DNA from: a virus
Taxonomy: Duplodnaviria > Caudoviricetes
Reading direction: 5' to 3' (one strand)
Virus record (IMG/VR): IMGVR_UViG_3300037991_003291
Coordinates: 1-28,430 of that record
Length of the DNA stretch: 28,430 nt
Under the pieces are notes generated by a model that worked only from the letters and a program-made list of their open reading frames with translations, was not told the origin of the DNA and did no database searches. Below, one piece after another: positions 2,975-21,914 of this stretch. The stretch's first letter is position 1, and each line of letters begins with the position of its first letter. The position numbers were made by a program, and so were the translations under genes.

Positions 2975-4467
2975 GACAGTCTCCTCAACGTACTTCCATC
3001 ATATGTTGGTCTACCATAGGCCATATGAAATTGACCACGTTGTACGCGTTGGTCTATCTTGTCAACATATCGCTTGGCCAAAGTGGTTATCTCTTTCATA
3101 TACTTACGCTCGTATGTTGTTGCCAACCCTTGTTGTCCCAACTTTAAGTATATGTCCTCCAATGCTTTGTAAACTATAAGCTGGTGAAACTCGTATGGCA
3201 TCTTTGGAACATCTGTTGACAACAGTAGGTCTTGTGGTTTCTCTAAGTATCGTATCACACCTTCGCGTACGTAGTCATGAAACGTGGTAGTTGTACCACC
3301 ACTCTTAATCTGTACTACCTCATAGTCGAATCCGTTTACTCTAGGATATGGTCTTATCTGTTGGTGAAGTCCATCAATTTCAATGTATCGTCTAGAACCA
3401 TTGTCCAACTGATTGGTATTTAGTATCTCAATAGATGATACCGTGTCCTCTGCAATCAAGATGTCTAGATAGTTAAGTTCATTTCTATTTGAACCTCCAA
3501 CGGTAACAAACAACCAACACGGCAACCCTCTACGCTCTGCTGTGGTTTTGTCGAAGTTCTTATTCCACAGTATAACCTTACGGTAACCTTCCCATTGAGA
3601 AGCAACCTGATCTTTGTCGTTGTATGTGTCAGCTATAATGACTTCATCATCCCACGACACAAACTTGACACCTATGCCTTTGTTGCTTGCATCAAACGTA
3701 ACTACCGCAGGCTCTGACAAAGCACCAATCTTGCCATCCTTGAGGAAGGCCCAACACAACTCGTAAGACTTACCATTTGGAAAGTTGCCTGTAGCTTCTG
3801 TTACTGTAAGTTCAATCTTTTCAGCTGGTTTCACGGTAACTGAAGGACTGGTAATGTACGCTTCAGCATAGCTCATTTCTCTATCTACACGTAGGTCTAA
3901 GTCTTCTTCACGTCTAGGTAGTATGGCTGTAGACTTTCCATACGGGTTTTGTGAACCAGTTACAGATACGTAGGGGTAATCTCTATGACCTAAATACAAC
4001 AGCTCCAAACAGTTTTCTGGAAGTGTATACCATCGCTTCTTAATCTTCCAACCTGTATAGTCGTTGTAACTTGTTCCCTCATACGCTCTGTCTAATAAAA
4101 TTTCTGTTTGAGACAACACTTTGGATATTGTATACTCCATAGTATCAATCTCAATGGGTTGTCCTTCCCATATATCTGGATTGTGCAACCTATCTATGGC
4201 TGCACTTAGTGTGGCCTTGCGTTGACCACGAGTAATATTCATATTCACAGCTGTAGCACCAGTGTTTTCTAGGTCTGTAGTTGCAGTAATGTCTACATGA
4301 AAACGCAATGTGCTTAACTTAGTAGCAAAATTCCAACGCTTCATTGTCCAGATACAATAGTATGCGTCATTGATTAGCTCATCTACTTGATCATTAAACT
4401 GTTGTAGTTCAGGTGAGTAGTCAGTAATATTCTTAACCTTTTCACGCAATGCTTTTAAGTTGGCCAT
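2971..4467 (-). CDS. head-tail adaptor / tail tubular protein A-like, with a large central insertion
   Basis: Start reassigned to MANLKALREK (GGAGA RBS). N-terminal LINDAY..W.F and YTLP..CL motifs; C-terminal PYP..Y..KP.DL..DVP.MP.EFHQLIVYKAL; located after the capsid genes. Confidence 0.7.
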   Translation of the reverse strand: MANLKALREKVKNITDYSPELQQFNDQVDELINDAYYCIWTMKRWNFATKLSTLRFHVDITATTDLENTGATAVNMNITRGQRKATLSAAIDRLHNPDIWEGQPIEIDTMEYTISKVLSQTEILLDRAYEGTSYNDYTGWKIKKRWYTLPENCLELLYLGHRDYPYVSVTGSQNPYGKSTAILPRREEDLDLRVDREMSYAEAYITSPSVTVKPAEKIELTVTEATGNFPNGKSYELCWAFLKDGKIGALSEPAVVTFDASNKGIGVKFVSWDDEVIIADTYNDKDQVASQWEGYRKVILWNKNFDKTTAERRGLPCWLFVTVGGSNRNELNYLDILIAEDTVSSIEILNTNQLDNGSRRYIEIDGLHQQIRPYPRVNGFDYEVVQIKSGGTTTTFHDYVREGVIRYLEKPQDLLLSTDVPKMPYEFHQLIVYKALEDIYLKLGQQGLATTYERKYMKEITTLAKRYVDKIDQRVQRGQFHMAYGRPTYDGSTLRRLS

Positions 4468-10509: not shown

Positions 10510-12014
10510 TATCTCCTGTGCAACTGTGGACTTACTCCACCTGACTGCTGTACCCTATCCGCTTTGCGTGCTATAATCCACTCCGGTAGGTATGCACTCT
10601 GCTTTAACTTAACACTGTTTAAACACCAGTACGCCAATGACATCGCCATAGCACTGTCACAGTGAGTATCCATATCATCACCAAACTTAAGTATACCCTT
10701 CTCATCTACCGTTATACTTCGCAACTCAGTTACAGTAATATTGTCTATCATATGTATACTACCTGTCTGTATACCCTTCTTAAGATTCTCAAACAACAAT
10801 GGCTTGGTTCTAGCTGTCGTCAAAAAGTCCTTTCCTGTATGTGCGTCTAACCAAAACCTATGAAAACCCTGATACTTTAACTCCTGTATCGTTGCCAATC
10901 CATAGTTGTTACTTTCTACCAATACCAATGCATTGTTGTATGTCACACTCATATCATAGATGTAATCTGCCAACTGTACTGGGCTTACCATGTTGCTTCT
11001 AAATATACACACAGGTTGTAATGTCATCCTAGATACACAAAACACTACTGCATAATCTCTACCAACACCACCACTAACATCTACACCTATCGCATACGAA
11101 TCATCTGGGTTAGCATTGTCAAACGTGGTCCACTCTGTAGGCTGTACCTGTACTATGTTTACATGCTCAAAATCTTGGGCTGTAAAGTATGTATTCCCAC
11201 TTATACGATATGCCTCATCCAATGATAAAGGATACTCACGTACAAACTTTTCCCAACCTAGCTTGCTTATCTTCTCACGTCTCCATGCTATCTGACCAAG
11301 GGTTAAACCATACCTTACCTGTAGCTTTGTCTCCTCCTCTGATAGGTCTAGGCCTATGTCCTCCATACTGTATTCACTATGCATAAACCAAGGAAAGAAT
11401 AGATATGTCCAATGGGCCTCCCCTGTATGATACTTGTTTATCTCTTTCCATAATGCATCATTGTAATAGTTTGCTGTAGACTCTATTACTAACTGTCCAT
11501 CATTCAATGCACTTATAGCAGTGGCCTTAAGTTCTTCTGGATTCTCTGCAAATGCATACTCTGAGATATGAAGCATAGAACATGTATAACTACGTAGACC
11601 ACCTGCCTGAGTTGCTGCAGCTGCAACAATACGACCACCACCCTTGAATGATAGCTCTGTTGTGTTGTCTATATCCAATGGTCTTTTAAGTACTTCTGGT
11701 AAGTATTGATAGAATCGTTTGTGTATGTGTAATAGATGTTTACTAGATGCAATCTTGTACGATAGTATCACACAAGTTAAAGGAGTAGTCGCTGTGTAGG
11801 CCTTCCAAAACATATAAGCACAAACAACCGTACTACTGCCAATCTGTCGAGGCTTAAGTATCAAAGTATCGTCACCAAGCTGTAAGCCGTTGATTATCTC
11901 TATTTGTTCAGCATTTAGTCTTAAAGGGACTACCTTACCACGCTTGTTAACTATGTTTAACCTGCTGATAAACTCAAACGGATCCGAAAAGATATTGTTT
12001 ACTTGCTCAATCAT
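10506..12014 (-). CDS. terL: terminase large subunit
   Basis: Walker A LKPRQIGSST, Walker B LHISEYAF, coupling motif IESTAN, nuclease motifs IGVDVSGGVGRDY, VESNNYG and HCDSAMAM; start reassigned to MIEQVNN (GGAG RBS). Confidence 0.95.
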   Translation of the reverse strand: MIEQVNNIFSDPFEFISRLNIVNKRGKVVPLRLNAEQIEIINGLQLGDDTLILKPRQIGSSTVVCAYMFWKAYTATTPLTCVILSYKIASSKHLLHIHKRFYQYLPEVLKRPLDIDNTTELSFKGGGRIVAAAATQAGGLRSYTCSMLHISEYAFAENPEELKATAISALNDGQLVIESTANYYNDALWKEINKYHTGEAHWTYLFFPWFMHSEYSMEDIGLDLSEEETKLQVRYGLTLGQIAWRREKISKLGWEKFVREYPLSLDEAYRISGNTYFTAQDFEHVNIVQVQPTEWTTFDNANPDDSYAIGVDVSGGVGRDYAVVFCVSRMTLQPVCIFRSNMVSPVQLADYIYDMSVTYNNALVLVESNNYGLATIQELKYQGFHRFWLDAHTGKDFLTTARTKPLLFENLKKGIQTGSIHMIDNITVTELRSITVDEKGILKFGDDMDTHCDSAMAMSLAYWCLNSVKLKQSAYLPEWIIARKADRVQQSGGVSPQLHRRY

Positions 12015-12292
12015 AGAATACTCCGTGCTGTATATGCAGCAACGTTCCACAAATCGCTTCGGTATGTTGCAACTATAGCATGAAAGTGTTCATGCTGTAA
12101 ACGTAGCAACCCGACCGATTCGCTACACTGGATATTGCTGCAAAACCAACAAATCAATGTGGCCTTCTGTTTAGATACCATTCGATAACCCTCCCTTAAC
12201 GCTGCCTAGATATTGCTGTCCTTGCAACATGTGGCCCTTGGGATGTGGGATGCTGCACATGCAACATAGAGAACCCGGATGCTGCACATGCA

Positions 12293-12625
12293 TCATTTGG
12301 CCTTCGTCACCTTGGATGCTGCTTTTGCAACATTGCCATTTGCTGTTGCTGCGTCACTAGCATCTAACCATTGCTGCAATTGCAAAGTGGACATTGCTGC
12401 GTTTGCGTCATCGCCTAGTTTGGCCTCAACTTCTCGAGTGTGTAACAGCTTTACAAAGTCGCGTATATCTGAACCGCTGAAGGTCTCTATCTGACCATGC
12501 ACTTTGATTTCTTCGTGTGCAAGGGTGATAAAAGCCCATAGTAACCCGTTAATATTACGATTTCGAATACTTCTAGATATTAGAGTCTTTGGGGCCTCTA
12601 ACCTTCTTGTCTTTGTACCCTTCAT
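12293..12625 (-). CDS. putative terminase small subunit
   Basis: 110 aa from MKGTKTRR (AGGGG RBS); basic N-terminus, helical; nearest gene upstream of terL. The function call is positional only. Confidence 0.5.
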   Translation of the reverse strand: MKGTKTRRLEAPKTLISRSIRNRNINGLLWAFITLAHEEIKVHGQIETFSGSDIRDFVKLLHTREVEAKLGDDANAAMSTLQLQQWLDASDAATANGNVAKAASKVTKAK

Positions 12626-12813
12626 TTCTACCCCTTGATTAATATGGTTTATGTATGTATGGGATGCTGTATTTGCAACAATTTGTAAGTTATGCTGTAA
12701 TAGTAGCATAATATAGTGGTGATGGTGATGTTGCAAGTGCAGTATATATTTTGCTGTGTTTGCAATATGCTGTATTTGTGTCATTTGCTGTGATTGCAGT
12801 ATGCTGTAGACGC

Positions 12814-12844
12814 AAAAAACCCCTGACAATATCGTCAAGGGTTT
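12814..12844 (-). terminator. intrinsic terminator ending the leftward non-structural operon
   Basis: Minus strand AAACCCTTGAC-GATATT-GTCAGGGGTTT followed by TTT. Confidence 0.8.
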
Positions 12845-12928
12845 CATTGTTGTTATTGCAGTATGTTATCTATGCACAAGTGCAAGTTTGAACCATATTA
12901 AACAATATGAATACTACTAAATAGAATT

Positions 12929-13030
12929 TTAATTTATACATATCGCCACCCATGCAATGAATCTGAAGTACAATATTACATAGACAGGTATACATATCAG
13001 TATCATGACTCTAATCAATCTATCAATCAT
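12929..13030 (-). CDS. putative small membrane peptide (33 aa)
   Basis: MIDRLIRVMILICIPVYVILYFRFIAWVAICIN; ATGA overlap with the GP88 stop; AAGGTG upstream. Confidence 0.45.
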   Translation of the reverse strand: MIDRLIRVMILICIPVYVILYFRFIAWVAICIN

Positions 13031-13878
13031 GTTACACCTTCCGTATTGTTTAAGCCTAGCAAGCTCACCATAGCATCATAAGACATCACAAAGTCATTAT
13101 CGGTCTTCTTACCCTTGAAAGGAAGTAAAACATGTCTCGTTCTATCCTTAGGGCGTATATCGGATATATTACCATCTGTGAATATATCTGGATATTCTGA
13201 CATTAATCGAACCTTGTCTTTTTTAAGTACCACATAAGCCACGCGATCAAATCTATTAGCAATTTGTAATGTGCTTTTTTCATTCCAACTATATGTGTAA
13301 TGATGGTTCATTGTTTGGTCATTGACTGGTTTTTTGGTGTAGTCGTAGCCACCTAAGAAATTGAAGATATCCTCAAATAACAAATCAAAATCTATCACCC
13401 AATCAAATGGTAAATCAGATAGTCCATTTAATCTAAGATAAACAAATTTATTTTGCTTTTGATAGGTATAGCACAAAGTGTCTAAATCATTTATGAGATC
13501 GGATAAATATTGCTCAGTATACAAATACAGGGCTATGGTTTTATTGGTGTATGTTCTGTCAACGTTTAAGGCCAGTCTGCCAGTATAGCCCAAACATGAT
13601 TTTTTACAACCTTCTGAGGCAAATCTACAAACATTTAACCCGCTCACATGCTGAGCCGGTGCCAGATATTGAACTATTGCAACATGGCCATTTTGAATAT
13701 CAAATTTGTTACTGGGTACGGTTATGATATCTCTACGTTTACCAGAATCCAAAACCATCAAATCATTATATGTTAGATGTGAATATAATGATAATGCTGT
13801 AACACTGTCTGATTGCATGAATTTTTGAAATTGTGGTATGTTGTCGGTGATAATGTATTTTTGTGGATTGAATGGCAT
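13027..13878 (-). CDS. GP88-family protein (Cys-triad, divergent radical-SAM-like)
   Basis: YLAPA..NVCRFASEGCKKSCL.YTGR, RLNGLSD, YDYTK and YTYS motifs recalled as characteristic of phage gene product 88. Confidence 0.75.
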   Translation of the reverse strand: MPFNPQKYIITDNIPQFQKFMQSDSVTALSLYSHLTYNDLMVLDSGKRRDIITVPSNKFDIQNGHVAIVQYLAPAQHVSGLNVCRFASEGCKKSCLGYTGRLALNVDRTYTNKTIALYLYTEQYLSDLINDLDTLCYTYQKQNKFVYLRLNGLSDLPFDWVIDFDLLFEDIFNFLGGYDYTKKPVNDQTMNHHYTYSWNEKSTLQIANRFDRVAYVVLKKDKVRLMSEYPDIFTDGNISDIRPKDRTRHVLLPFKGKKTDNDFVMSYDAMVSLLGLNNTEGVT

Positions 13879-13904
13879 GATTTTGTCCTTGTTTGGTTGG
13901 TTGG

Positions 13905-14027
13905 TTATTGTTGTTTGGTTGCTGTTGAATATTGACGCAATAACTCGGATAATGAGCCGAAAACGTCTCCGTTAATGCAGAAATATATTTTTGTGTGTGT
14001 TGTATTGTGTTCGATAGTGTAAGTCAT
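13905..14027 (-). CDS. small hypothetical protein (40 aa, absent from the ORF track)
   Basis: MTYTIEHNTTHTKIYFCINGDVFGSLSELLRQYSTATKQQ; preceded by the conserved AACCAACCAACCAAGGACAAA leader; its stop abuts the next leader. Confidence 0.65.
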   Translation of the reverse strand: MTYTIEHNTTHTKIYFCINGDVFGSLSELLRQYSTATKQQ

Positions 14028-14074
14028 AATATTTGTCCTTGGTTGGTTGGTTGTTACTATTGTAGCCGGGTTTA

Positions 14075-14443
14075 TTAAAGTTCTACTGTCTCAGATTCAT
14101 ATTCAGAGTCGTCTTCGCTTGACTCTTCTTCGCTTGACTCTTCTTCGCTTGAATCCTCATCTATTTCAAGCTGTATAAATAAGACTTCGTATCGTTCACC
14201 GGCCTTATGGGACTCACAACATTCACAAGGTGCATTGCTGAAGCAGTTTGTAGTTCCGTTATTATATGCATAGCCGTATAGATCAGATAAAAAGTTAATT
14301 GATTTTTGTATAATTTCTATGCGTGCAGCTGCCTTTTCTGGTGTATCATACCATAAATCAAATGATGTAGTATCACCGGCTACAACTGTACTACACTCAT
14401 TACATACACTTAGTAGTGTGTGGTGTCCTGTAAATTGTCTCAT
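14075..14443 (-). CDS. hypothetical Zn-binding protein with acidic tail
   Basis: CNEC..FSNAPCECCES..AGER; Ser/Glu-rich C-terminus; AGGACAAA leader. Confidence 0.75.
   Translation of the reverse strand: MRQFTGHHTLLSVCNECSTVVAGDTTSFDLWYDTPEKAAARIEIIQKSINFLSDLYGYAYNNGTTNCFSNAPCECCESHKAGERYEVLFIQLEIDEDSSEEESSEEESSEDDSEYESETVEL
14112..14156. repeat. 15-bp tandem repeat x3 (TCTTCGCTTGACTCT) encoding SSEEE
   Basis: Two exact copies and one degenerate copy read directly. Confidence 0.9.
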
Positions 14444-14571
14444 AATTTTTGTCCTGTTTTATTGGTTGAATATTATTAGATAGTCAGACTACCTGTTACA
14501 AGTGTAGCCGATTCGGAAACAAAAACCAAACAAAATAAATTCTTTTTTTCAAAATAGTTTTATCATTAAAC

Positions 14572-14649
14572 CGCGCACACACACACACGCGCGCACACAC
14601 ACACGCGCACACACGCGCGCGCGCACACACACGCATACACACACATATG
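14572..14649. repeat. 78-bp perfect alternating purine-pyrimidine (CA/CG) tract
   Basis: CGCGCACACA..CGCATACACACACATATG with no break in alternation. Confidence 0.95.
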
Positions 14650-14676
14650 GCACTGGAGCGCGAATGGCACTGGAGC
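14647..14676 (+). repeat. 13-bp direct repeat ATGGCACTGGAGC x2 (17-bp period)
   Basis: Copies at 14647 and 14664. Confidence 0.9.
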
Positions 14677-14680
14677 AGTT

Positions 14681-14696
14681 TGGCATGAATCTTGCT
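14681..14696 (+). promoter_or_regulatory. sigma54 (RpoN) -24/-12 promoter-like site
   Basis: TGGCATGAATCTTGCT versus consensus TGGCACG-N4-TTGCW; exact GG-N10-GC spacing; intergenic, facing the rightward operon. Confidence 0.65.
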
Positions 14697-14748
14697 ATAT
14701 AGTGTAATTAGTATAGTATTATATAGGCAGAGATTTAATATCCCTACC

Positions 14749-14821
14749 ACCACCACCACTAAAAATAAATATTTCAATAGTGTTATAGTATAGTAATAGT
14801 GGGAATAGTAGTGGTGGTGGT
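14749..14821. repeat. 13-bp inverted repeat ACCACCACCACTA / TAGTGGTGGTGGT around an AT-rich 47-nt spacer
   Basis: Arms at 14749-14761 and 14809-14821. Confidence 0.8.
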
Positions 14822-14855
14822 ATAAGATATTTCAAATTTATTTTAAAAATAATAC

Positions 14856-14884
14856 TTGACACTACTGTAACATTGAATTAAGTA
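14856..14884 (+). promoter_or_regulatory. sigma70-like promoter for the rightward operon
   Basis: Perfect TTGACA after an AT-rich UP-like tract; the -10 is weak (TAAGTA at 17 bp). Confidence 0.5.
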
Positions 14885-14935
14885 GTTAGTATACCCATTG
14901 GGTATTACAACCAACAACCAACCAACGAGGACATC

Positions 14936-15364
14936 ATGCTACAATGTATTTACATAGAATGGAACCTAGGCAACCACACCTATACAATGACAGTAAACCT
15001 ATCAGACGAACACAGGGAGCAGTCACTACAATCACTGCAAAACTGGATATTCGAAAACATACACAGAATCGAATCTTGGACATTTGTCGACTTACCGCCT
15101 AACTCTGGATCCCTAATGGACGCTGTTGAGCCGATAATACAACTGAATAGTACATATCTAGTAATCCAAAAAGGATATTACATTTTTGGACACGGATACA
15201 GCAAAGAGCAGGCTGTTGAGGATATGAAACGATGGATGGACTCGGATAGTCCATTACAGGAGGCAACGCCAGAGGATATGCAAGACTCCTACCACCAAGC
15301 AAACGATGGAGACATGGTGTTGGTAGAATCGACACCAGAACTACTAGAGACGTACAACAACTAA
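14936..15364 (+). CDS. hypothetical protein
   Basis: 142 aa; conserved CAACCAACCAACGAGGACA leader. Confidence 0.8.
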   Translation: MLQCIYIEWNLGNHTYTMTVNLSDEHREQSLQSLQNWIFENIHRIESWTFVDLPPNSGSLMDAVEPIIQLNSTYLVIQKGYYIFGHGYSKEQAVEDMKRWMDSDSPLQEATPEDMQDSYHQANDGDMVLVESTPELLETYNN

Positions 15365-15389
15365 CAACCAACCAACGAGGACAAACACG

Positions 15390-15791
15390 ATGCAAGTAGA
15401 TAAAACATTAATCAATGAAGAAGCTCAAAAGTTTCTTACAAGTTCAATCAATAATACACCGGTTACAGCAGGTATTGCGAACGGTGAGATCAAACGAGTG
15501 GTAGTTATTATCGATGAAAATTGTGAACTTGAGGGTGCTGAGGGTAGAGTGGCTGTATTCTACCATAACATGCAACAGTTTACAAATCATCAGGAGCTAC
15601 AAACTACACGACCACTGGAGCTATTTTCATTCGAACTCGAATTTACTACTGATAACGACGAGGGCCAGCAGGTCAGAGAATTTGATTTTTGGCTAGACCT
15701 GACAGATGATTTTGATTCGATCGGCGATGAATGGAAAGACAAAAAATCGGAAAGAATGTCTGATTCTGAATTTCTAAAAACTTGGATGTAA
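15390..15791 (+). CDS. hypothetical acidic protein
   Basis: 133 aa; conserved leader; Asp/Glu-rich. Confidence 0.8.
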   Translation: MQVDKTLINEEAQKFLTSSINNTPVTAGIANGEIKRVVVIIDENCELEGAEGRVAVFYHNMQQFTNHQELQTTRPLELFSFELEFTTDNDEGQQVREFDFWLDLTDDFDSIGDEWKDKKSERMSDSEFLKTWM

Positions 15792-15827
15792 TCAGTAAAC
15801 AACAACCAACCAACAAGGACACAAACA

Positions 15828-16484
15828 ATGACACTACGTACAGCCAAGGGCAACAAACCAATCACGATAACATCATGGTGTATCGTATTCCCACACAACG
15901 GGGGTACAATGGTACAGGTCATGGGAGAACGCATACACCTAGTCAATGGGTATGAGGAGACACTACAGAAGCTTGGCCTGACTGATTCTGGAGCGAACCA
16001 GCAACACGCACAGGCACTGGAGCCACCTATGGAAAATAGTGGTGGTGGTGCTAGAGAACGGGTCAATATGAGTATTGAATGTAATGGGCACAGTATAGCC
16101 ATCGATCCCAAATGTGACATAGCCGTAGCGCAGAGCGTTATGAGGGATGATAACTGTCGAAAGATTATTGCACACTATGTAGAGCAGTATGAACTCTATC
16201 ACGGCAGACTGCCTAGCTACATAAATGACAGGAGCATGGGCAAAATATATAAACATCGCAACCAGTCTGACATCGTAATACAGGTTCTGACATGGCATTT
16301 CAATAGCAATCATAGACGTGCTATGTATTTTCGAACTGAGGGTATGTGGGATGCTGCTGTCAGCCTAAAGGAACTGGAGCAAAATTACCAGTATATTCTA
16401 GAGGAGCAAACACGTACGTCACAAGAGACAGAAGGAACCGGACTGCCAACATTAAAATTCGATGGGGAGGGTAATCTGATATGA
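15828..16484 (+). CDS. hypothetical protein, possibly replication initiator-like
   Basis: 218 aa with conserved leader; helical C-terminal domain; coupled (ATGA) to the Zn-finger gene. The function is a guess. Confidence 0.55.
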   Translation: MTLRTAKGNKPITITSWCIVFPHNGGTMVQVMGERIHLVNGYEETLQKLGLTDSGANQQHAQALEPPMENSGGGARERVNMSIECNGHSIAIDPKCDIAVAQSVMRDDNCRKIIAHYVEQYELYHGRLPSYINDRSMGKIYKHRNQSDIVIQVLTWHFNSNHRRAMYFRTEGMWDAAVSLKELEQNYQYILEEQTRTSQETEGTGLPTLKFDGEGNLI

Positions 16485-17275
16485 ATAAAAAGAAAAGAGA
16501 AAGTAGACTACGCACCATTCAACTGGTCATGATAACCTTTCGGCACAACTTTGGCCGTAAAGAAGACTGGGTACAACACATGAAGCGAAGTTGGGCAGCT
16601 AAACTATTGCACCTACCACAAACAGATGAAGAGTTGATTGATATCATGGATAACATGTGTACCAAGCACTATGTCTATCCAAACACGGTAAATCTATCCG
16701 ACTACCTTAAGGAGATTGAGAAGTACGTTGGTGAAAATGGTGGCACTGGATTGACTGGTAACGTCTACGAGTTCTGTCCTGATTGTGAGCACAGCAGTGG
16801 AGTTATAGACACATGTACATGGTACGTCAAAGACGGGCAGGAGAAGGTCCGCAGCTACTGCTGCTCGTGTACCTGTTCTGGAGCTAGAGCCAAGTACAGT
16901 AAAATGTTGACATGGCAGGAGCTGAAGCAAAACGCTGAGCAGTCACACATGGACGGTAGCATAGAGCTGGTTCATTTCTACCACACCAGTAGACGCATGC
17001 AACGTCTACCGTACAGTATCACCAATCCCATACACCACGCTCAGGTGCAAGCCAGACTAGAGGAGGATGCCAAGCAAGGGATTCCAAATCCTAACTTGAC
17101 AATAGTTGCCACTATGGTTACAGGTAGTGGTATACAAATGGACAACCGTGGTAATGTTATTGGTGAAAAATACATACCACCGGAACAGCCAAAGATACAA
17201 CCACAACCACAACTACAACCTACAACCAATACACACAGTGGTATGTCAGACGAAGAGTTCTGGCGCAACCACTAG
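16481..17275 (+). CDS. Zn-finger protein, possibly helicase-loader related
   Basis: Helical N-terminus, then CPDC..G..CCSCTC; Pro/Gln-rich tail; no Walker A. Confidence 0.55.
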   Translation: MNKKKRESRLRTIQLVMITFRHNFGRKEDWVQHMKRSWAAKLLHLPQTDEELIDIMDNMCTKHYVYPNTVNLSDYLKEIEKYVGENGGTGLTGNVYEFCPDCEHSSGVIDTCTWYVKDGQEKVRSYCCSCTCSGARAKYSKMLTWQELKQNAEQSHMDGSIELVHFYHTSRRMQRLPYSITNPIHHAQVQARLEEDAKQGIPNPNLTIVATMVTGSGIQMDNRGNVIGEKYIPPEQPKIQPQPQLQPTTNTHSGMSDEEFWRNH

Positions 17276-17283
17276 GAGACAAA

Positions 17284-17775
17284 ATGTACTACAATATAGA
17301 TGACCTAAACTGGGTACTACTCAGACTACAGGACCTAGCCACTGACCCTGCCATGCGCACAGTGTTTGAGCGCACACAGGTCAGCCTCAATGTTCTGGCC
17401 ATACAAATGGGTCAGCCTGCCTTAGACAGGGAGATTGACAAACACCAACAGACAAAAACATTTCGAGACATAGAACAGTTAGACGAGGATATAAAAACCA
17501 GACTGGAGCGCATGACGGACCTAGGGCTGGTACCTCGTAGAGGCAACCCAAACTTCAATGGCCTATCGATGTATGTCAACCCACAGTGGCCCGATGTCCC
17601 ATATCCTCACCAATTCCATCATGCCATATACCTGAGTGACAGCATAGAGAAGGGGCTGTACTACGACATCACAATATACCACGACGGAACATTGTCATGG
17701 TATATGGAAAATGAATGTATCTACACCCTGCTAGAACAGGCACGGGAGTATATGAGAACCAAGGGCCTATTATGA
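17284..17775 (+). CDS. hypothetical protein
   Basis: 163 aa; AGGAGA RBS. Confidence 0.75.
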   Translation: MYYNIDDLNWVLLRLQDLATDPAMRTVFERTQVSLNVLAIQMGQPALDREIDKHQQTKTFRDIEQLDEDIKTRLERMTDLGLVPRRGNPNFNGLSMYVNPQWPDVPYPHQFHHAIYLSDSIEKGLYYDITIYHDGTLSWYMENECIYTLLEQAREYMRTKGLL

Positions 17776-18107
17776 TTTTAGAAACAATAGAGGAGATCGT
17801 AGAGCTGTGGAAGCTACGCTCAATGTTTCCAGACAAAGAAGAGCTTCTCAAAAAATGCATGACGGATGTACAAATAACCATGGGTCCAGATGGATCTATG
17901 GTAGGACACTACCCTAAATGGACATGTGTTATCGACGAGAATGGATACACATGTACCTGTCCTGACCACCAATACCGAGGCAGTATGTGCAAACATTTAG
18001 GAGCACTGGCCACAAGAATCAACAACAACTGGAGCGAAGAGTTCCAACAACCAAACGAGGATAAAAATGAAACAAAGGAAACAAATGAAAGTAGGGAATA
18101 TAGTTAG
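17772..18107 (+). CDS. SWIM zinc-finger protein
   Basis: CTCPDHQYRGSMCKH fits CxCx(n)CxH; start reassigned to MILETIEE (ATGA overlap). Confidence 0.85.
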   Translation: MILETIEEIVELWKLRSMFPDKEELLKKCMTDVQITMGPDGSMVGHYPKWTCVIDENGYTCTCPDHQYRGSMCKHLGALATRINNNWSEEFQQPNEDKNETKETNESREYS

Positions 18108-18345
18108 ATGGGCTGGCAAGTCTTCCGAATTTAAAGTTGGTGTGGTCTGTTCTTACTGTGACTTTCAGGGTTTATGGTATGTAGTATTCCCCGATGGTTC
18201 ATACGAAATAGTGGAACACTACTTAGAGGTACTTATTGACCATGATGAGGTAAAAGAAACTCATAAATCCACTGAAACTGACCCACATGGACTTGAACAA
18301 CATTACTCACAATTAACAAAAATGACAAACATCAAACGAGGATAA
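18067..18345 (+). CDS. hypothetical protein (SH3/KOW-like start MKVGNIVRW)
   Basis: 92 aa; CAACCAAACGAGGATA leader. Confidence 0.7.
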   Translation: MKQRKQMKVGNIVRWAGKSSEFKVGVVCSYCDFQGLWYVVFPDGSYEIVEHYLEVLIDHDEVKETHKSTETDPHGLEQHYSQLTKMTNIKRG

Positions 18346-18350
18346 CAACA

Positions 18351-18668
18351 ATGAAAAATAATTTACCTGAACCAACACCACCACTACCAAAACCACTTCC
18401 AATGGACTGGAGAAGTCAACTTAGACGGCGCATAGAGTCCGACAGCAGAAGTCAATCGCAACTGTCTAGAGACAGTGGAGTATCTAGAGCCAGCATACAG
18501 TTTTATATCAGTGGTGGACGTAGAGAACCGCGTGTCAGCAGTCTGTTTGGATTAATGTCTGCACTATATGGAGAGGATATGGAACACTGGTATGTCTACT
18601 ATTCAGCAATGATAGCCAAGGAAATGATGGATAAGAATAGACAAAAGGAATCAAACCCGTTAAACTGA
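18351..18668 (+). CDS. XRE/Cro-CI-type helix-turn-helix regulator
   Basis: SQSQLSRDSGVSRASIQFYISGGRREPRVSSL. Confidence 0.85.
   Translation: MKNNLPEPTPPLPKPLPMDWRSQLRRRIESDSRSQSQLSRDSGVSRASIQFYISGGRREPRVSSLFGLMSALYGEDMEHWYVYYSAMIAKEMMDKNRQKESNPLN
18638..18666 (+). promoter_or_regulatory. sigma70-like promoter for the candidate sRNA
   Basis: TAGACA (18638-43), 17-nt spacer, TAAACT (18661-66). Confidence 0.55.
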
Positions 18669-18671
18669 TAA

Positions 18672-18741
18672 TGGTTGTATAGGAAATTTTATTTCCCAGT
18701 AGCAGGCTGGTGTTTGTCCTCGGCCTGCTATTGTTTTATTT
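18672..18741 (+). ncRNA. candidate ~70-nt trans-acting sRNA / terminator with anti-RBS loop
   Basis: Hairpin GGAAAT-TTT-ATTTCC; 13-bp stem 18697-18733 with loop GTGTTTGTCCT; T-rich tail; loop complementary to the repeated early-gene RBS. Confidence 0.55.
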
Positions 18742-18758
18742 AGTGATGGTGGTGGTGT

Positions 18759-19094
18759 ATGAATAGTTCCCCATGTGATAGTCTGGGTAGATGGATATCA
18801 CATGCTATAGCACGCAACGGCATCTCCACACACAGGGCAGCTCAGCTAGCTGGACTACACCACAACACATTGAAAACATGCATAGATGGTCAATCATACA
18901 TGCACCTGCTCAACATAGTTGCACTGATAGGTGTCATATCTAAATGTGAGGATAGGTCACCTGCTGAAGTTATGCAGGAGGCTGTGCTGTCCATACGTGA
19001 CATACAGCTCATGGAGCAACGATACAACAACAAAAAGGCTGGAGCCAAAACAGCTCCAGCCAGAGAGAATCAATCTAACAATACAGATGGTTAA
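18759..19094 (+). CDS. second XRE-like helix-turn-helix protein
   Basis: LGRWI..NGISTHRAAQLAGLHHNTLKTCIDG. Confidence 0.7.
   Translation: MNSSPCDSLGRWISHAIARNGISTHRAAQLAGLHHNTLKTCIDGQSYMHLLNIVALIGVISKCEDRSPAEVMQEAVLSIRDIQLMEQRYNNKKAGAKTAPARENQSNNTDG
19032..19061 (-). terminator. intrinsic terminator of the incoming late operon, embedded in the HTH gene
   Basis: Minus strand GGCTGGAGC-TGTTTTG-GCTCCAGCC-TTTTT. Confidence 0.8.
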
Positions 19095-19096
19095 GG

Positions 19097-19273
19097 TTAA
19101 CGCTGTTGTTCGTCAGCGTCAATCAACTCTTTCAAAATTTTATACAACAACTCAAACAAGTCTTGTACAAGCTCTTGACGTTCATCCTGTGTCAATCCAC
19201 CACGTGAGTGTTGGACCAACTTACGAACAAACATTACCAACTCTGGTGTCAATGCTAATAAATCTTGGTTCAT
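19097..19273 (-). CDS. small helical protein (58 aa, absent from the ORF track)
   Basis: MNQDLLALTPELVMFVRKLVQHSRGGLTQDERQELVQDLFELLYKILKELIDADEQQR; ATGA overlap; AGGAGA upstream. Confidence 0.75.
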   Translation of the reverse strand: MNQDLLALTPELVMFVRKLVQHSRGGLTQDERQELVQDLFELLYKILKELIDADEQQR

Positions 19274-19626
19274 CTTCGTCTCCTTCTTACAGGGGTTACT
19301 CTTTTACCACGGCCAACCCTAGACTTCTGACTAACCTTGGAGCGATATTGCCCCTTAGACATCTCAGAACGCGTCTTGGGTGTTTTACTACTAACACGTT
19401 TGGTAGGTCTGCAATATGGTGTACCCTTACGTGCTGTACCACATGGTTTACCTGACTGGTCCTTCCAACTTTCCTTCTGCCAGCGTTTAAGACTGGCACC
19501 CTTCTTACTCTTACGCACCTGTCCTTTCTTCTTGCGACACTTGGCTATGGCCTGTGAGGCACGGGCACTGGGAAAAACTTTGTAGGAACCCTTAACTTTG
19601 TTGTAGCATGCATCTTTCTTAGTCAT
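19270..19626 (-). CDS. highly basic protein (DUF5872-like)
   Basis: KKDACY.KVK..YKVFPSA, LKRW.KE.W and PYCRPTKRVSSKTPKT motifs; Lys/Arg-rich. Confidence 0.75.
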   Translation of the reverse strand: MTKKDACYNKVKGSYKVFPSARASQAIAKCRKKKGQVRKSKKGASLKRWQKESWKDQSGKPCGTARKGTPYCRPTKRVSSKTPKTRSEMSKGQYRSKVSQKSRVGRGKRVTPVRRRRR

Positions 19627-19907
19627 CGTCGCCTACTCTTCTTGCCTACGCACTTCCATTTCTTTCTGGATAGATTGTTCGGACTGTTAGGATTGTTGCG
19701 TTTCTTGGCTGACAAACGCTTTTTGATACCGTAGCTTCTGGCACAGTATGCGTCACCCTTTTTGGTTCCTGCCTGTATACGATCCTTGCCACTCTTTGAC
19801 TTGCCTGCTTGCCCATAGGACACCTTCTTTTTGCGACCAGTCTTTGGATTCTTAACAACCTTGACAAATCTTTTACCCCTAGAAGGTTTGACTTTTTTAC
19901 GTGGCAT
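19623..19907 (-). CDS. highly basic protein (DUF6321-like)
   Basis: KKVSYGQAG..GTKKGDAYCARS..SRKKWKC; Lys/Arg-rich. Confidence 0.7.
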   Translation of the reverse strand: MPRKKVKPSRGKRFVKVVKNPKTGRKKKVSYGQAGKSKSGKDRIQAGTKKGDAYCARSYGIKKRLSAKKRNNPNSPNNLSRKKWKCVGKKSRRR

Positions 19908-20223
19908 TATCGACCCTTATTAATGAAGCTTTGATTTCACTTATTATTGTACTCAATGTTGTGATACTTTGCTCCAATAATGACATTCTTTTGTCTAAAT
20001 TGTTTACATCGTTGACCAGCTCATTTCGTACAGTCTCTTCACGCGTCTGCAAATCTCGAATCACTTGGTCGTATCTGTTGCGCAACTCCTCTTCCTTGCG
20101 CTCCTGCTTTAGTTCGCGCTCGTCTGCTCTTCTCTGCAAATCTTTATTCTGTTGATATAGGAATACAGCAAAGGCCAAGTTGGCTCCGCCACTCATCAAC
20201 ATGTTCATCACTTCTGCTTCCAT
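19897..20223 (-). CDS. putative holin-like protein (BhlA/UviB-like architecture)
   Basis: One short N-terminal hydrophobic segment followed by a coiled coil; start MEAEVMN (GGAG RBS); follows the tail fibre gene. Confidence 0.5.
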   Translation of the reverse strand: MEAEVMNMLMSGGANLAFAVFLYQQNKDLQRRADERELKQERKEEELRNRYDQVIRDLQTREETVRNELVNDVNNLDKRMSLLEQSITTLSTIISEIKASLIRVDNAT

Positions 20224-20233
20224 GATATACTCC

Positions 20234-20273
20234 AAACAACAAAGGGGTCTTACTGATAGTATAGACCCCTTTG
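20234..20273 (-). terminator. intrinsic terminator after the fibre gene
   Basis: CAAAGGGGTCT / AGACCCCTTTG 11-bp stem, then TTGTTT on the minus strand. Confidence 0.7.
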
Positions 20274-20291
20274 GACAGATAGTCTATCAGA

Positions 20292-21914
20292 TTATCCGAA
20301 GAACAATACTGTTACAGTGTCAGTTGACAATGGAGCTGTACCCATTGTGATTTGACCAACACCACCAGTACCACCAGTAGCACTAACTGTATACTGGTCG
20401 GTGCTTGGGGAACTTGCTACTTTCTCAATAGCAACACCGTTCAAGTATACAATAGTACCTGATACTAGTTGAGCATCCACAGCACTAGTCAAGTCAAACG
20501 CAGTTTTAGAACCATTTTGTCCTGACAATGAGATGTACTTTGGAGCAAATGACAACTTGGCACCAGTTACTTGGTCGTCAGCAATAGCAGCTGTTGACAC
20601 ACCATTGGTTGCAATAGCAAGGCCATCAGAACCATTGGTAAGTGAACTACCATCCAACTTGACTTGCAATACACCACCGTTGTCCTGTAGACCATTACCA
20701 GTGTTGAGCTTGTCTGCTGGTATACTCCCAGCAAGTTTACTGTTGGCCACAACGCCATCTGCCAACATTGCAGCATCGTTGATAGCACCGTTTGCTATTT
20801 TTGCTGCTGTCACAGCATCATCAGCCAACTGAGCTGTATCTACTCCAGCATCACTAATCTTAATACCGTTTGAACCAAGAGCAAGTGTAGACCCGTCAAG
20901 ATCAACAGTCAATACTTGTGAACTGAGTGCAAGACCATTTCCAGCAACAGTAGAGGACAAAACCAACTTGCCACCTGATTCAGCAAACGCACTGTCAAGT
21001 TGCAATTTGTCGGCAGGAATACTTCCACTTAACTTTTGTGCTGTAACTGCAGCATCTGCAATCTGTAATGTTCCAACACCTGCAGTGTTAATCTTAAGAC
21101 CATTGGAACCGGTTACCAAACTACTTCCATCTAGGTTGATAGCAAGGTCAGATACAGCAGCAGAACCATTGTATGATGTGATTGTAATACCACCAGTTGC
21201 AGCAGCAGACAAAGCATTCAATGCTCCACCAAGTGATACACCTGAGATAGTGCTGTTTGCAAGCTTATTATTTGCAATGGACCCAGCCAACATATCGTTG
21301 CTAATACCACCGGCTTTAACGCGCAATGCATCTGAATCAATCTCAATAGATGAATCATCTACAGCGACATCCAAACGGTCACCTGTCTTTGTCAGGGCAG
21401 CTCCGGCTTCGAAGGTACTGGCCCCATTATACTGACTGAATGACAAATCGTTTGTACCAACTACAGCAGCTCCTTTGTTGGATGTACATACAAATGGCTT
21501 GTCTCCATTAACAGTACCTTGCTCGATAAACATTGAGTTACCAGCAGCATCACTACCAGCAGCCATGTCCGACGAACGCGACCATGAACCAGCAGCACAA
21601 ATATAAATACCGTTCTCTTTTTTATCTGTCTGCTCTTTTACCAAAACTCTGTCGCCAGCAGATACAGATACACCATCGATGGTCTGTGTACCAGACAGGG
21701 TAATGTTTCCTGTTGTAGCAACTTTACAAGAGTCCTTGGGGTCAAGGCCTGCAGCAACAGTGTCTACATATTCTCGGGTTGCCAAAGCTTTTTCATTGGT
21801 GTCTGATCCAGTATAACGAATCTGACCGGAGAAACTAAAGTTGTCCGATGAATCGAGTTTTGCTGCATCAACTGCATTGTTACGTATTTGTTCTTTCTTA
21901 ATAGTGACTGCCAT
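20292..21914 (-). CDS. tail/head fibre-like protein
   Basis: ATREYVD and KVATTGNITLSGTQTIDGV..GDRVLVK.QT..ENGIY domain; repeated IAD.AVT..KL and LDGSSL..GS.GLKI units. Confidence 0.8.
   Translation of the reverse strand: MAVTIKKEQIRNNAVDAAKLDSSDNFSFSGQIRYTGSDTNEKALATREYVDTVAAGLDPKDSCKVATTGNITLSGTQTIDGVSVSAGDRVLVKEQTDKKENGIYICAAGSWSRSSDMAAGSDAAGNSMFIEQGTVNGDKPFVCTSNKGAAVVGTNDLSFSQYNGASTFEAGAALTKTGDRLDVAVDDSSIEIDSDALRVKAGGISNDMLAGSIANNKLANSTISGVSLGGALNALSAAATGGITITSYNGSAAVSDLAINLDGSSLVTGSNGLKINTAGVGTLQIADAAVTAQKLSGSIPADKLQLDSAFAESGGKLVLSSTVAGNGLALSSQVLTVDLDGSTLALGSNGIKISDAGVDTAQLADDAVTAAKIANGAINDAAMLADGVVANSKLAGSIPADKLNTGNGLQDNGGVLQVKLDGSSLTNGSDGLAIATNGVSTAAIADDQVTGAKLSFAPKYISLSGQNGSKTAFDLTSAVDAQLVSGTIVYLNGVAIEKVASSPSTDQYTVSATGGTGGVGQITMGTAPLSTDTVTVLFFG

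Follow-up and report, generated by a model that had tools for sequence, protein, structure and literature searches.

Organization of the early region

The window, the whole stretch of DNA analyzed here (28,430 nt), covers 28.4 kb of the genome of an uncultured tailed phage with a total length of about 34 kb. Its left part encodes a terminase, a major head protein and an amidase; a divergent block of small non-structural genes occupies about 13.0–19.1 kb, and the right part is a convergent late arm. The runs that contain at least half of the window (nine rows) are labeled marine metagenome. None of the 24 runs listed was an RNA data set, which bears neither way on expression. No terminase relative was found in genome contigs, and the closest annotated phage terminase matched at 28%; these searches pointed to no host and to no close annotated phage.

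The right early arm ends in an HTH gene (gene 1), behind which lies a second gene on the same strand (gene 2; Table 1). A sequence-only reading, made earlier, had described both as HTH genes and proposed that the DNA between them encodes a small RNA directed against the ribosome-binding sites (RBSs) of the early genes. Gene 1 did score as HTH, while gene 2 is XRE-like only. Gene 2 starts 17 nt after the U-rich tail of the intervening unit and is syntenic with it in relatives; our list of promoter-like sites contains no separate site between the two.

Other features of the region were noted in passing. The divergent intergenic region contains a long alternating purine–pyrimidine (CA/CG) tract at 14566–14646, also found in relatives L002, L108 and L030, which might be a Z-DNA-prone origin or control element. 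A palindrome, ATACCCATTGGGTAT, at 14890–14904 lies just before the first right-arm leader, and similar sequence is found in L105, L090 and L002. In the late arm, 19270–19907 encodes two small, very basic proteins, one of them DUF5872; the 94-aa basic protein from this region has hundreds of relatives in viral contigs, many of them outside the syntenic phage family described below.

Table 1. Features of the early region, in order along the window.
Feature	Coordinates	Strand	Evidence
Leader of gene 13878 (GP88-family protein)	13882–13904	−	Complementarity runs
Leader of 40-aa ORF starting at 14027, ACAACCA + AGGACAAATAT	14029–14054	−	Complementarity runs, energy scan
Leader of gene 14443	14448–14469	−	Complementarity runs
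Leader of gene 14936, two ACAACCA boxes + CGAGGACA	14907–14933	+	Complementarity runs
Leader of gene 15390, C/A box + CGAGGACAAACAC, best predicted target	15364–15388	+	Best non-self site in both-strand scan, −13.3 kcal/mol
Leader of gene 15828, ACAACCA + AAGGACA	15802–15826	+	Complementarity runs
Leader of gene 18067, ACAACCA + CGAGGATAAA	18047–18065	+	Complementarity runs
Leader of HTH gene 18351, CGAGGATAA, overlaps upstream stop codon	18337–18345	+	Complementarity runs
HTH gene 1 (XRE type), last gene of right early arm, predicted sRNA promoter in its 3′ end	18351–18668	+	PF01381, E = 5e-6
−35 hexamer TAGACA of predicted sRNA promoter, inside 3′ end of gene 1	18638–18643	+	N17 spacing to −10
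−10 hexamer TAAACT of predicted sRNA promoter	18661–18666	+	Homologues on consensus
5′ seed UGGUUGU, complement of C/A-rich leader box ACAACCA	18672–18678	+	Predicted unpaired
Small 6-bp spacer hairpin, window sub-lineage only	18682–18696	+	Fold
13-bp terminator-like stem	18697–18733 (18697–18709 with 18721–18733)	+	Fold
Anti-SD seed GUGUUUGUCCU(CG), 11-nt loop (18710–18720) plus 2 stem nt	18710–18722	+	Exact complement of 15376–15388
U-rich tail, predicted 3′ end	18734–18741	+	Sequence
XRE-like gene 2, directly behind terminator	18759–19094	+	Atlas features 0.93–0.94 to XRE clusters; C.BclI, E = 0.36
Terminator-like site, ends convergent late arm before the unit is reached	19037–19061	−	Site listing

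A candidate small RNA between the two genes

The unit at 18638–18741 consists of a putative promoter, a 5′ seed, a small hairpin, a 13-bp stem with its loop and a U-rich tail, all of which were found in the window where the sequence-only reading had placed them. Its proposed fold was also borne out: RNA 18670–18745 folded at −26.2 kcal/mol (z = −4.8), and 0 of 200 shuffles were as good. The RNA is predicted to start at about 18672–18673 and to end at about 18741, giving a length of about 70 nt; across the units of relatives, predicted lengths were 53–76 nt, without an ORF. The promoter, TAGACA-N17-TAAACT, overlaps the stop codon of gene 1 and is a 9/12 match, a class about as frequent as expected by chance (27 sites, compared to 25.4 in shuffled sequence). 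At the position of the spacer hairpin, L082 had a different hairpin and the other units had none. The minus strand of the terminator hairpin folded as well (z = −5.3), displaying GAGGACAAACAC.

An Rfam scan of 12000–20500 found nothing on the unit and only two unrelated sub-threshold matches. When viral contigs were searched for the exact stem-loop pattern, the sole match was L001, which was dropped as a relative, being a chance match within an unrelated gene.

Another motif, TAGTGGTGGTG, occurs in 10 copies in the window (2046, 2140, 8688, 10239, 11066, 14751, 14810, 16038, 18376 and 26587; a variant is at 18741), compared to 0.075 expected under a third-order model. Relatives have the motif too, and in them a copy always directly follows the unit as well. 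The possibility that it was an operator confined to promoters was rejected, as the copies lie on both strands and mostly within genes; our guess is that it is a Chi-like or protein-binding site.

Complementarity to the leaders of early genes

Elsewhere in the window, GTGTTTGTCCTCG alone was an exact 13-nt complement of a part of 18670–18745. It fell on 15376–15388, in the leader of gene 15390, confirming the match that had been claimed for the terminator loop; 11 of the 13 nt lie in the loop and the last 2 in the stem. With G–U pairs allowed, the seven other leaders that had been named as targets (14027, 18067, 18351, 14936, 13878, 14443 and 15828) gave runs of 12, 10, 9, 8, 8, 8 and 7 nt, where 11, 10, 9, 8, 8, 8 and 6 nt had been reported. 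Exact runs to the loop at the 12 called early leaders, which include one false ORF, were 8, 8, 8, 2, 8, 13, 7, 4, 6, 6, 6 and 6 nt; the eight leaders that carry the tag described below had 6–13 nt, and the 24 late leaders had 6 nt or less. When the loop was shuffled, a run of at least 13 nt to any of 36 leaders arose in 16 of 20,000 trials, and the summed runs of the top eight were reached in 13 of 20,000, which excludes chance as an explanation in the window.

Pairing energies were calculated with an ungapped, accessibility-corrected script of our own rather than IntaRNA, and gene starts came from a simple caller, some of whose calls are wrong. The sequence-only reading had expected early leaders to rank at the top among all start regions, and tagged leaders took 8 of the 9 best places among 34 starts. 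With re-called starts, scores of −5 kcal/mol or lower were obtained for 8 of 12 early leaders vs. 1 of 24 late leaders (p = 1.6e-4). Genome-wide, apart from the 15390 leader, the targets did not outscore several sites, coding or antisense, that match the 7-nt 5′ seed. A GGTTG-rich stretch in a late gene (about 3506–3565, minus strand) matches the unit's score for exact complementarity to early leaders; it is probably a coding coincidence.

A two-part tag is present at eight early starts: a C/A-rich box, ACAACC and in many cases repeated, lies ahead of AGGAC/UA. It had been proposed that one RNA addresses the early genes and spares the late ones. The complementarity is indeed restricted to non-structural leaders, but not every early gene is included: genes 16481, 17284 and 17772 lack the tag. 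The tag was present on 53 of 95 genes with a free intergenic leader vs. 15 of 113 overlapping genes, and it marks mainly free-leader genes, not all early genes.

In a contig from run X7, sequence upstream of the 18067 leader is joined to the 18351 leader region (window 18047–18345), a junction that would fit a recombination between leader repeats in which gene 18067 was lost. The X7 and X14 contigs also have replacements of other early genes.

Conservation of the unit in related phages

Relatives were found by searching viral contigs with three window proteins, which yielded a syntenic marine phage family. After removal of L098–L100 (truncated, near-identical to the window, or unrelated), 67 loci remained, duplicates counted; in 61 of them the unit occupied the corresponding position, representing 29 distinct sequences. 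Of the six misses, L059, L060 and L081 have variant units and L029, L089 and L097 are truncated. A blind pipeline detected only three of the five positive controls and found no unit in 23 of 23 non-syntenic or distant loci, mostly ones without early regions.

In 23 of the 29 distinct units, a spacer of exactly 17 nt separated the −10 from a −35 element with at least 4/6 matches to TTGACA, vs. 4.5% in the background. This spacing was not a criterion in choosing the units, 20 of which come from one lineage. The −10 elements of homologues were TATACT, TACAAT, TATAGT, TACACT and TATAAT; they were chosen by a TA---T rule, so their likeness to the consensus is partly built in. A T-rich tail was present in all 29 distinct units, and TGGTT was invariant in eight aligned lineage-A units. 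A variant of the window locus in run X11 had 15 substitutions across 18333–18788, none of them in the RNA body, and its −10 was changed to TACAAT.

The sequence-only reading had named co-variation of loop and leader in related phages as a test, and the outcome was favorable: the unit is kept, its stems covary, and its seeds follow the leaders of their own lineage. Between the window and L082, 11 of 11 scored stem pairs were kept through two double and two single changes while the loop stayed identical (58 of 500 in a shuffle control on an alignment of only three rows, too few to be informative). The stems of L050 and L090 differed by two double changes, and those of L002 and L108 by one double change, two single changes and one non-pair; the loops were fixed in both pairs. 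In lineage B, all nine stem positions were paired in 20 of 20 RNAs.

The seeds follow the leader tags

The upstream box occurs in two main states, UGGUUGU/ACAACCA and GGUAGGUU/AACCUACC (seed/leader). Among the 11 lineage-B phages, 37 of 131 early leaders but none of 122 late ones contained AACCTACC; the other seven phages had it in 0 of their 77 early leaders. The RNAs of all 11 carry GGTAGGTT (GGUAGGUU as RNA). Conversely, in the five phages with TGGTTGT RNAs, ACAACCA was present in 20 of 61 early leaders and 1 of 81 late ones; of the 131 early leaders of lineage B, none had it. L090 had a third box state, in a single leader.

The anti-SD parts match CGAGGACA, CAAUGAGGA, GAGGAUA or AGGAG, according to lineage. 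The window has leader CGAGGACAAA with loop UUUGUCCUCG; L002 and L108 have leader CAAUGAGGA with UCCUCAUUG; L105 has GAGGAUA with UAUCCUC; and many lineage-B phages have AGGAG with CUCCU in a 5′ hairpin loop. The suggestion that the SD sequence itself is the address of a regulon holds insofar as the SD part tracks the seeds, but the best-conserved address is the C/A-rich box upstream.

The seeds occupy different structural slots. In lineage A, the anti-box seed lies in the 5′ tail and the anti-SD seed in the terminator loop, a non-colinear order for a single duplex. In lineage B, the anti-SD seed is in the first hairpin and the anti-box seed in the linker, so that the main seeds are 5′ of the terminator. 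Two lineages, L059/L060 and L081, have the anti-box seed alone, in the terminator loop. That the seeds sit in different slots by lineage fits selection on pairing.

A cross matrix of RNAs against leaders was block-like by lineage. On the window leaders, the SD-zone scores were −7.4 for the window's own RNA and −10.3 for that of L082, vs. −3.3 for L002, −5.0 for L105 and −0.1 to −2.9 for lineage B. Within lineage A, a phage's own RNA did not score best in every case, and the L030 RNA outscored the window's own on the window leaders; the L002 and L010 RNAs equaled that of L105 on the L105 leaders. When 60-nt segments of both strands were ranked by exact complementarity to the early leaders of the same phage, the unit came within the top 1% in 17 of 18 phages and at 5.7% in L115. 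In accessibility-corrected shuffles, at most 1 of 150 was as good in 6 of 14 phages; for lineage B and L090, 6, 9, 89, 28, 26, 62, 56 and 32 of 150 were as good or better, and in these the predicted fold partly buries the seed. Early and late scores differed at p < 0.05 in 8 of 15 phages.

In a tree of three late-arm proteins the seed states were scattered, and the tree is mosaic relative to the early module; it was therefore not used for counting seed changes. Since a single module comprises both the RNA and the leaders, independent states number only about two to three for the box and four for the SD part. Linkage accounts for the correlation between seed and tag, but not for the complementarity of each state.

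Proposed mechanism and alternatives

Judged by its sequence, with support that is comparative or computed throughout, this is a real, conserved antisense unit that tracks its lineage: its anatomy, its complementarity, the restriction of that complementarity to non-structural leaders, the conservation of promoter spacing and stem, and the lineage-wise tracking are established at this level. It has the promoter and intrinsic terminator of its own, the length within 50–300 nt and the lack of an ORF that define trans-encoded sRNAs, as read from sequence, together with short accessible seeds complementary to several distant mRNAs. The seeds are conserved and co-vary with their targets, through few independent states and with weak energy support in lineage B. 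The unit probably encodes an sRNA that acts in trans and by which the phage represses the translation of a group of its own early genes.

From these features we infer transcription, pairing in vivo, repression, and its timing and purpose. A host σ70-type polymerase would make an RNA of about 70 nt ending at its own terminator. The loop would cover the SD and spacer, while the G/U seed would pair with the C/A box; at the eight non-structural starts this would block ribosome loading. Repression is the expected result because both the SD and the putative C/A enhancer would be occluded, as in LhrC and GcvB (see below). As the RNA builds up, it would most likely lower early proteins on both divergent arms, with an indirect effect on any gene coupled to a tagged one upstream of it. 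The mRNA of the right-arm operon, which ends in the same hairpin, may add to the sRNA pool, and gene 2 may be expressed by read-through. Tyrosine integrase and resolvase domains (PF00589, PF00239) had no match in five of five relatives, four of which are at least 90% complete; the purpose that we prefer is therefore early-gene shut-down in lytic growth.

Several other explanations have to be weighed. The hairpin lies directly 3′ of the last stop codon of the right arm, as its natural terminator, and the window promoter matches at only 9 of 12 positions. Both points would agree with there being no stand-alone RNA, the hairpin being the 3′ end, or a fragment, of the right-arm early mRNA that pairs back on the leaders as feedback on the early transcript level. 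We consider this unlikely in view of the exact 17-nt spacing of the −35, conserved in 23 of 29 units, and of −10 variants that stay on the consensus; moreover, three predicted targets are on the divergent left arm, which means pairing in trans in any case. Rather less likely is an attenuator, in which early mRNAs bind the nascent RNA and disturb the terminator, letting polymerase enter gene 2, so that the unit senses the early transcript level. Such a role is suggested by the close, syntenic position of gene 2 without a listed promoter-like site of its own, and by co-folding, in which the 15390 leader opened the terminator stem; two other window leaders left the stem intact, however, and in lineage B the main seeds lie outside the terminator, on its 5′ side. 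Slightly less probable again is that the unit is a by-product, an ordinary terminator derived from an inverted copy of a recombinogenic leader repeat and without a pairing function. The leader repeats do appear to recombine (the run-X7 contig), the reverse complement of the lineage-B RNA resembles a whole leader, and mycobacteriophage Amgine has an unchanged tag but a comparable loop that has drifted. A by-product would nevertheless hardly keep its loop fixed while the stem changes, or match different tags from different slots by lineage, and a terminator needs no conserved promoter.

The lineage-specific blocks of the pairing matrix, and the known involvement of phage antisense RNAs in immunity and exclusion (PMC8198154, PMC12197685), raise another question of role: the RNA might pair with leaders and yet have been selected for excluding related superinfecting phages or for acting on host mRNAs. 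With integrase and resolvase absent from all five relatives there is no sign of lysogeny, although a plasmid-like lysogeny would be compatible with this, and we regard such a role as very unlikely. Least probable of all is that a protein binds the tag, with the minus strand of the hairpin, which folds with the tag in its loop, serving as a decoy, or that the motif acts at the DNA level. The two HTH-type genes flanking the unit would suit such a protein, but the G–U-compatible variation between GAGGAC and GAGGAU fits RNA pairing, and a minus-strand decoy is disfavored because the promoter and U tail exist on the plus strand only and late transcripts meet the terminator-like site at 19061–19037.

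Comparison with known regulatory systems

The repressing sRNA that we favor would work like two known types without belonging to either family. In enteric bacteria, the multi-target sRNA GcvB pairs just upstream of the SD on translation enhancers containing ACA (PMC3879156). The G/U seed of the unit likewise faces ACAACC boxes upstream of the SD, so that a GcvB-type mode is present as complementarity; the lack of an Rfam match on the unit speaks against homology in sequence or structure. GcvB is chromosomal and regulates host amino-acid genes, whereas the unit is phage-encoded, is aimed at the phage's own standardized leaders and has a second, anti-SD seed. LhrC of Listeria and the UCCC-loop sRNAs RNAIII, RsaE and SprD block translation initiation through anti-SD motifs in loops, including terminator loops (PMC4132741). 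The unit shares the anti-SD motif in its terminator loop, but in place of a generic UCCC and host targets it has extended seeds, private to each lineage, that follow the tag of the phage itself.

Among phages, the c4 RNAs of P1 and P7 differ in specificity. As predicted for the unit, c4 is a phage-encoded base-pairing repressor of phage genes that is transcribed ahead of regulatory genes; it acts on one operon, icd-ant, of a temperate phage (PMC8198154). The candidate targets of the unit are instead about eight dispersed starts on two arms, no integrase was found in five of five relatives, and the Rfam models for C4 and the P4 CI antisense RNA had no match on the unit in the scan of 12000–20500. 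Cis-encoded phage antisense RNAs such as OOP, sar and aQ lie opposite their targets with long perfect complementarity, whereas here the targets are 0.4–4.8 kb away and the longest exact match is 13 nt. In the sections of a 2025 review that treat them (PMC12197685), the phage RNAs VpdS, PreS, 24B_1, sar, OOP, aQ, DicF, STnc6030 and sas target host genes or a single gene of the phage, and none is described as reading a shared leader tag. The T4 endoribonuclease RegB uses the SD context of early genes as an address and inactivates early mRNAs while sparing late ones (PMC3014915); it differs from RNA pairing in being a protein nuclease that acts with S1. The RBS as an address is already known in phages; an RNA that reads it is not, and we found no report in the open-access literature of a phage sRNA reading its own shared leader tag.

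Start-associated sequences of mycobacteriophages

A similar arrangement of tags has been described in cultured phages. Pope et al. reported 13-bp start-associated sequences (SAS) of unknown function in Cluster K mycobacteriophages, with one reversed copy, situated away from gene starts, in four K1 phages (PMC3203893). The SAS of Cluster K and those of Cluster EF Microbacterium phages are over-conserved repeats at the RBS position before non-structural genes, and no RNA partner for the reversed copy is proposed in the passages on these repeats in PMC3203893 and PMC7302621. The window tag is analogous, being a repeated motif at the RBS position limited to non-structural genes, but sequence and hosts are unrelated, and the window leaders have neither the 13-bp consensus nor the 17-bp inverted repeats of Cluster K.

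In phage Anaya, the reversed SAS copy forms the loop (CCUCCUAUCC) of a long GC-rich hairpin between genes 96 and 97, without a U tail (L158:31835–31905; JF704106, about 59,835–59,905); further stretches were L169, L161 and L163. Twelve stretches were drawn from 193 matching records plus TM4. The loop was kept with differing stems in four of them (Anaya, Angelica, Niklas and SgtBeansprout) and was absent in seven, including the right halves of Pixie and TM4. In Amgine the loop had drifted with the tag unchanged, and Amgine was therefore rejected as a case of loop/tag covariation. The Anaya hairpin as a reader of SAS is a lead, not proof, and it offers a bench system that can be cultured.

We tentatively propose, at somewhat below even confidence, that phages build RNA-only regulons, in which a lineage-private tag on the starts of a gene class is read by one sRNA, and that the same design explains the SAS of Cluster K1. 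If true, such a regulon would be the RNA counterpart of a repressor and its operators. With one sRNA reaching an entire class of its own genes by way of a co-evolving leader tag, a small phage that has no known dedicated nuclease or repressor would gain post-transcriptional control over the early-to-late switch. Regulons could then be predicted from nothing more than sequence, a collection of naturally occurring, partly orthogonal RNA–leader pairs would be at hand, and the function of start-associated sequences would become testable in culturable mycobacteriophages on M. smegmatis.
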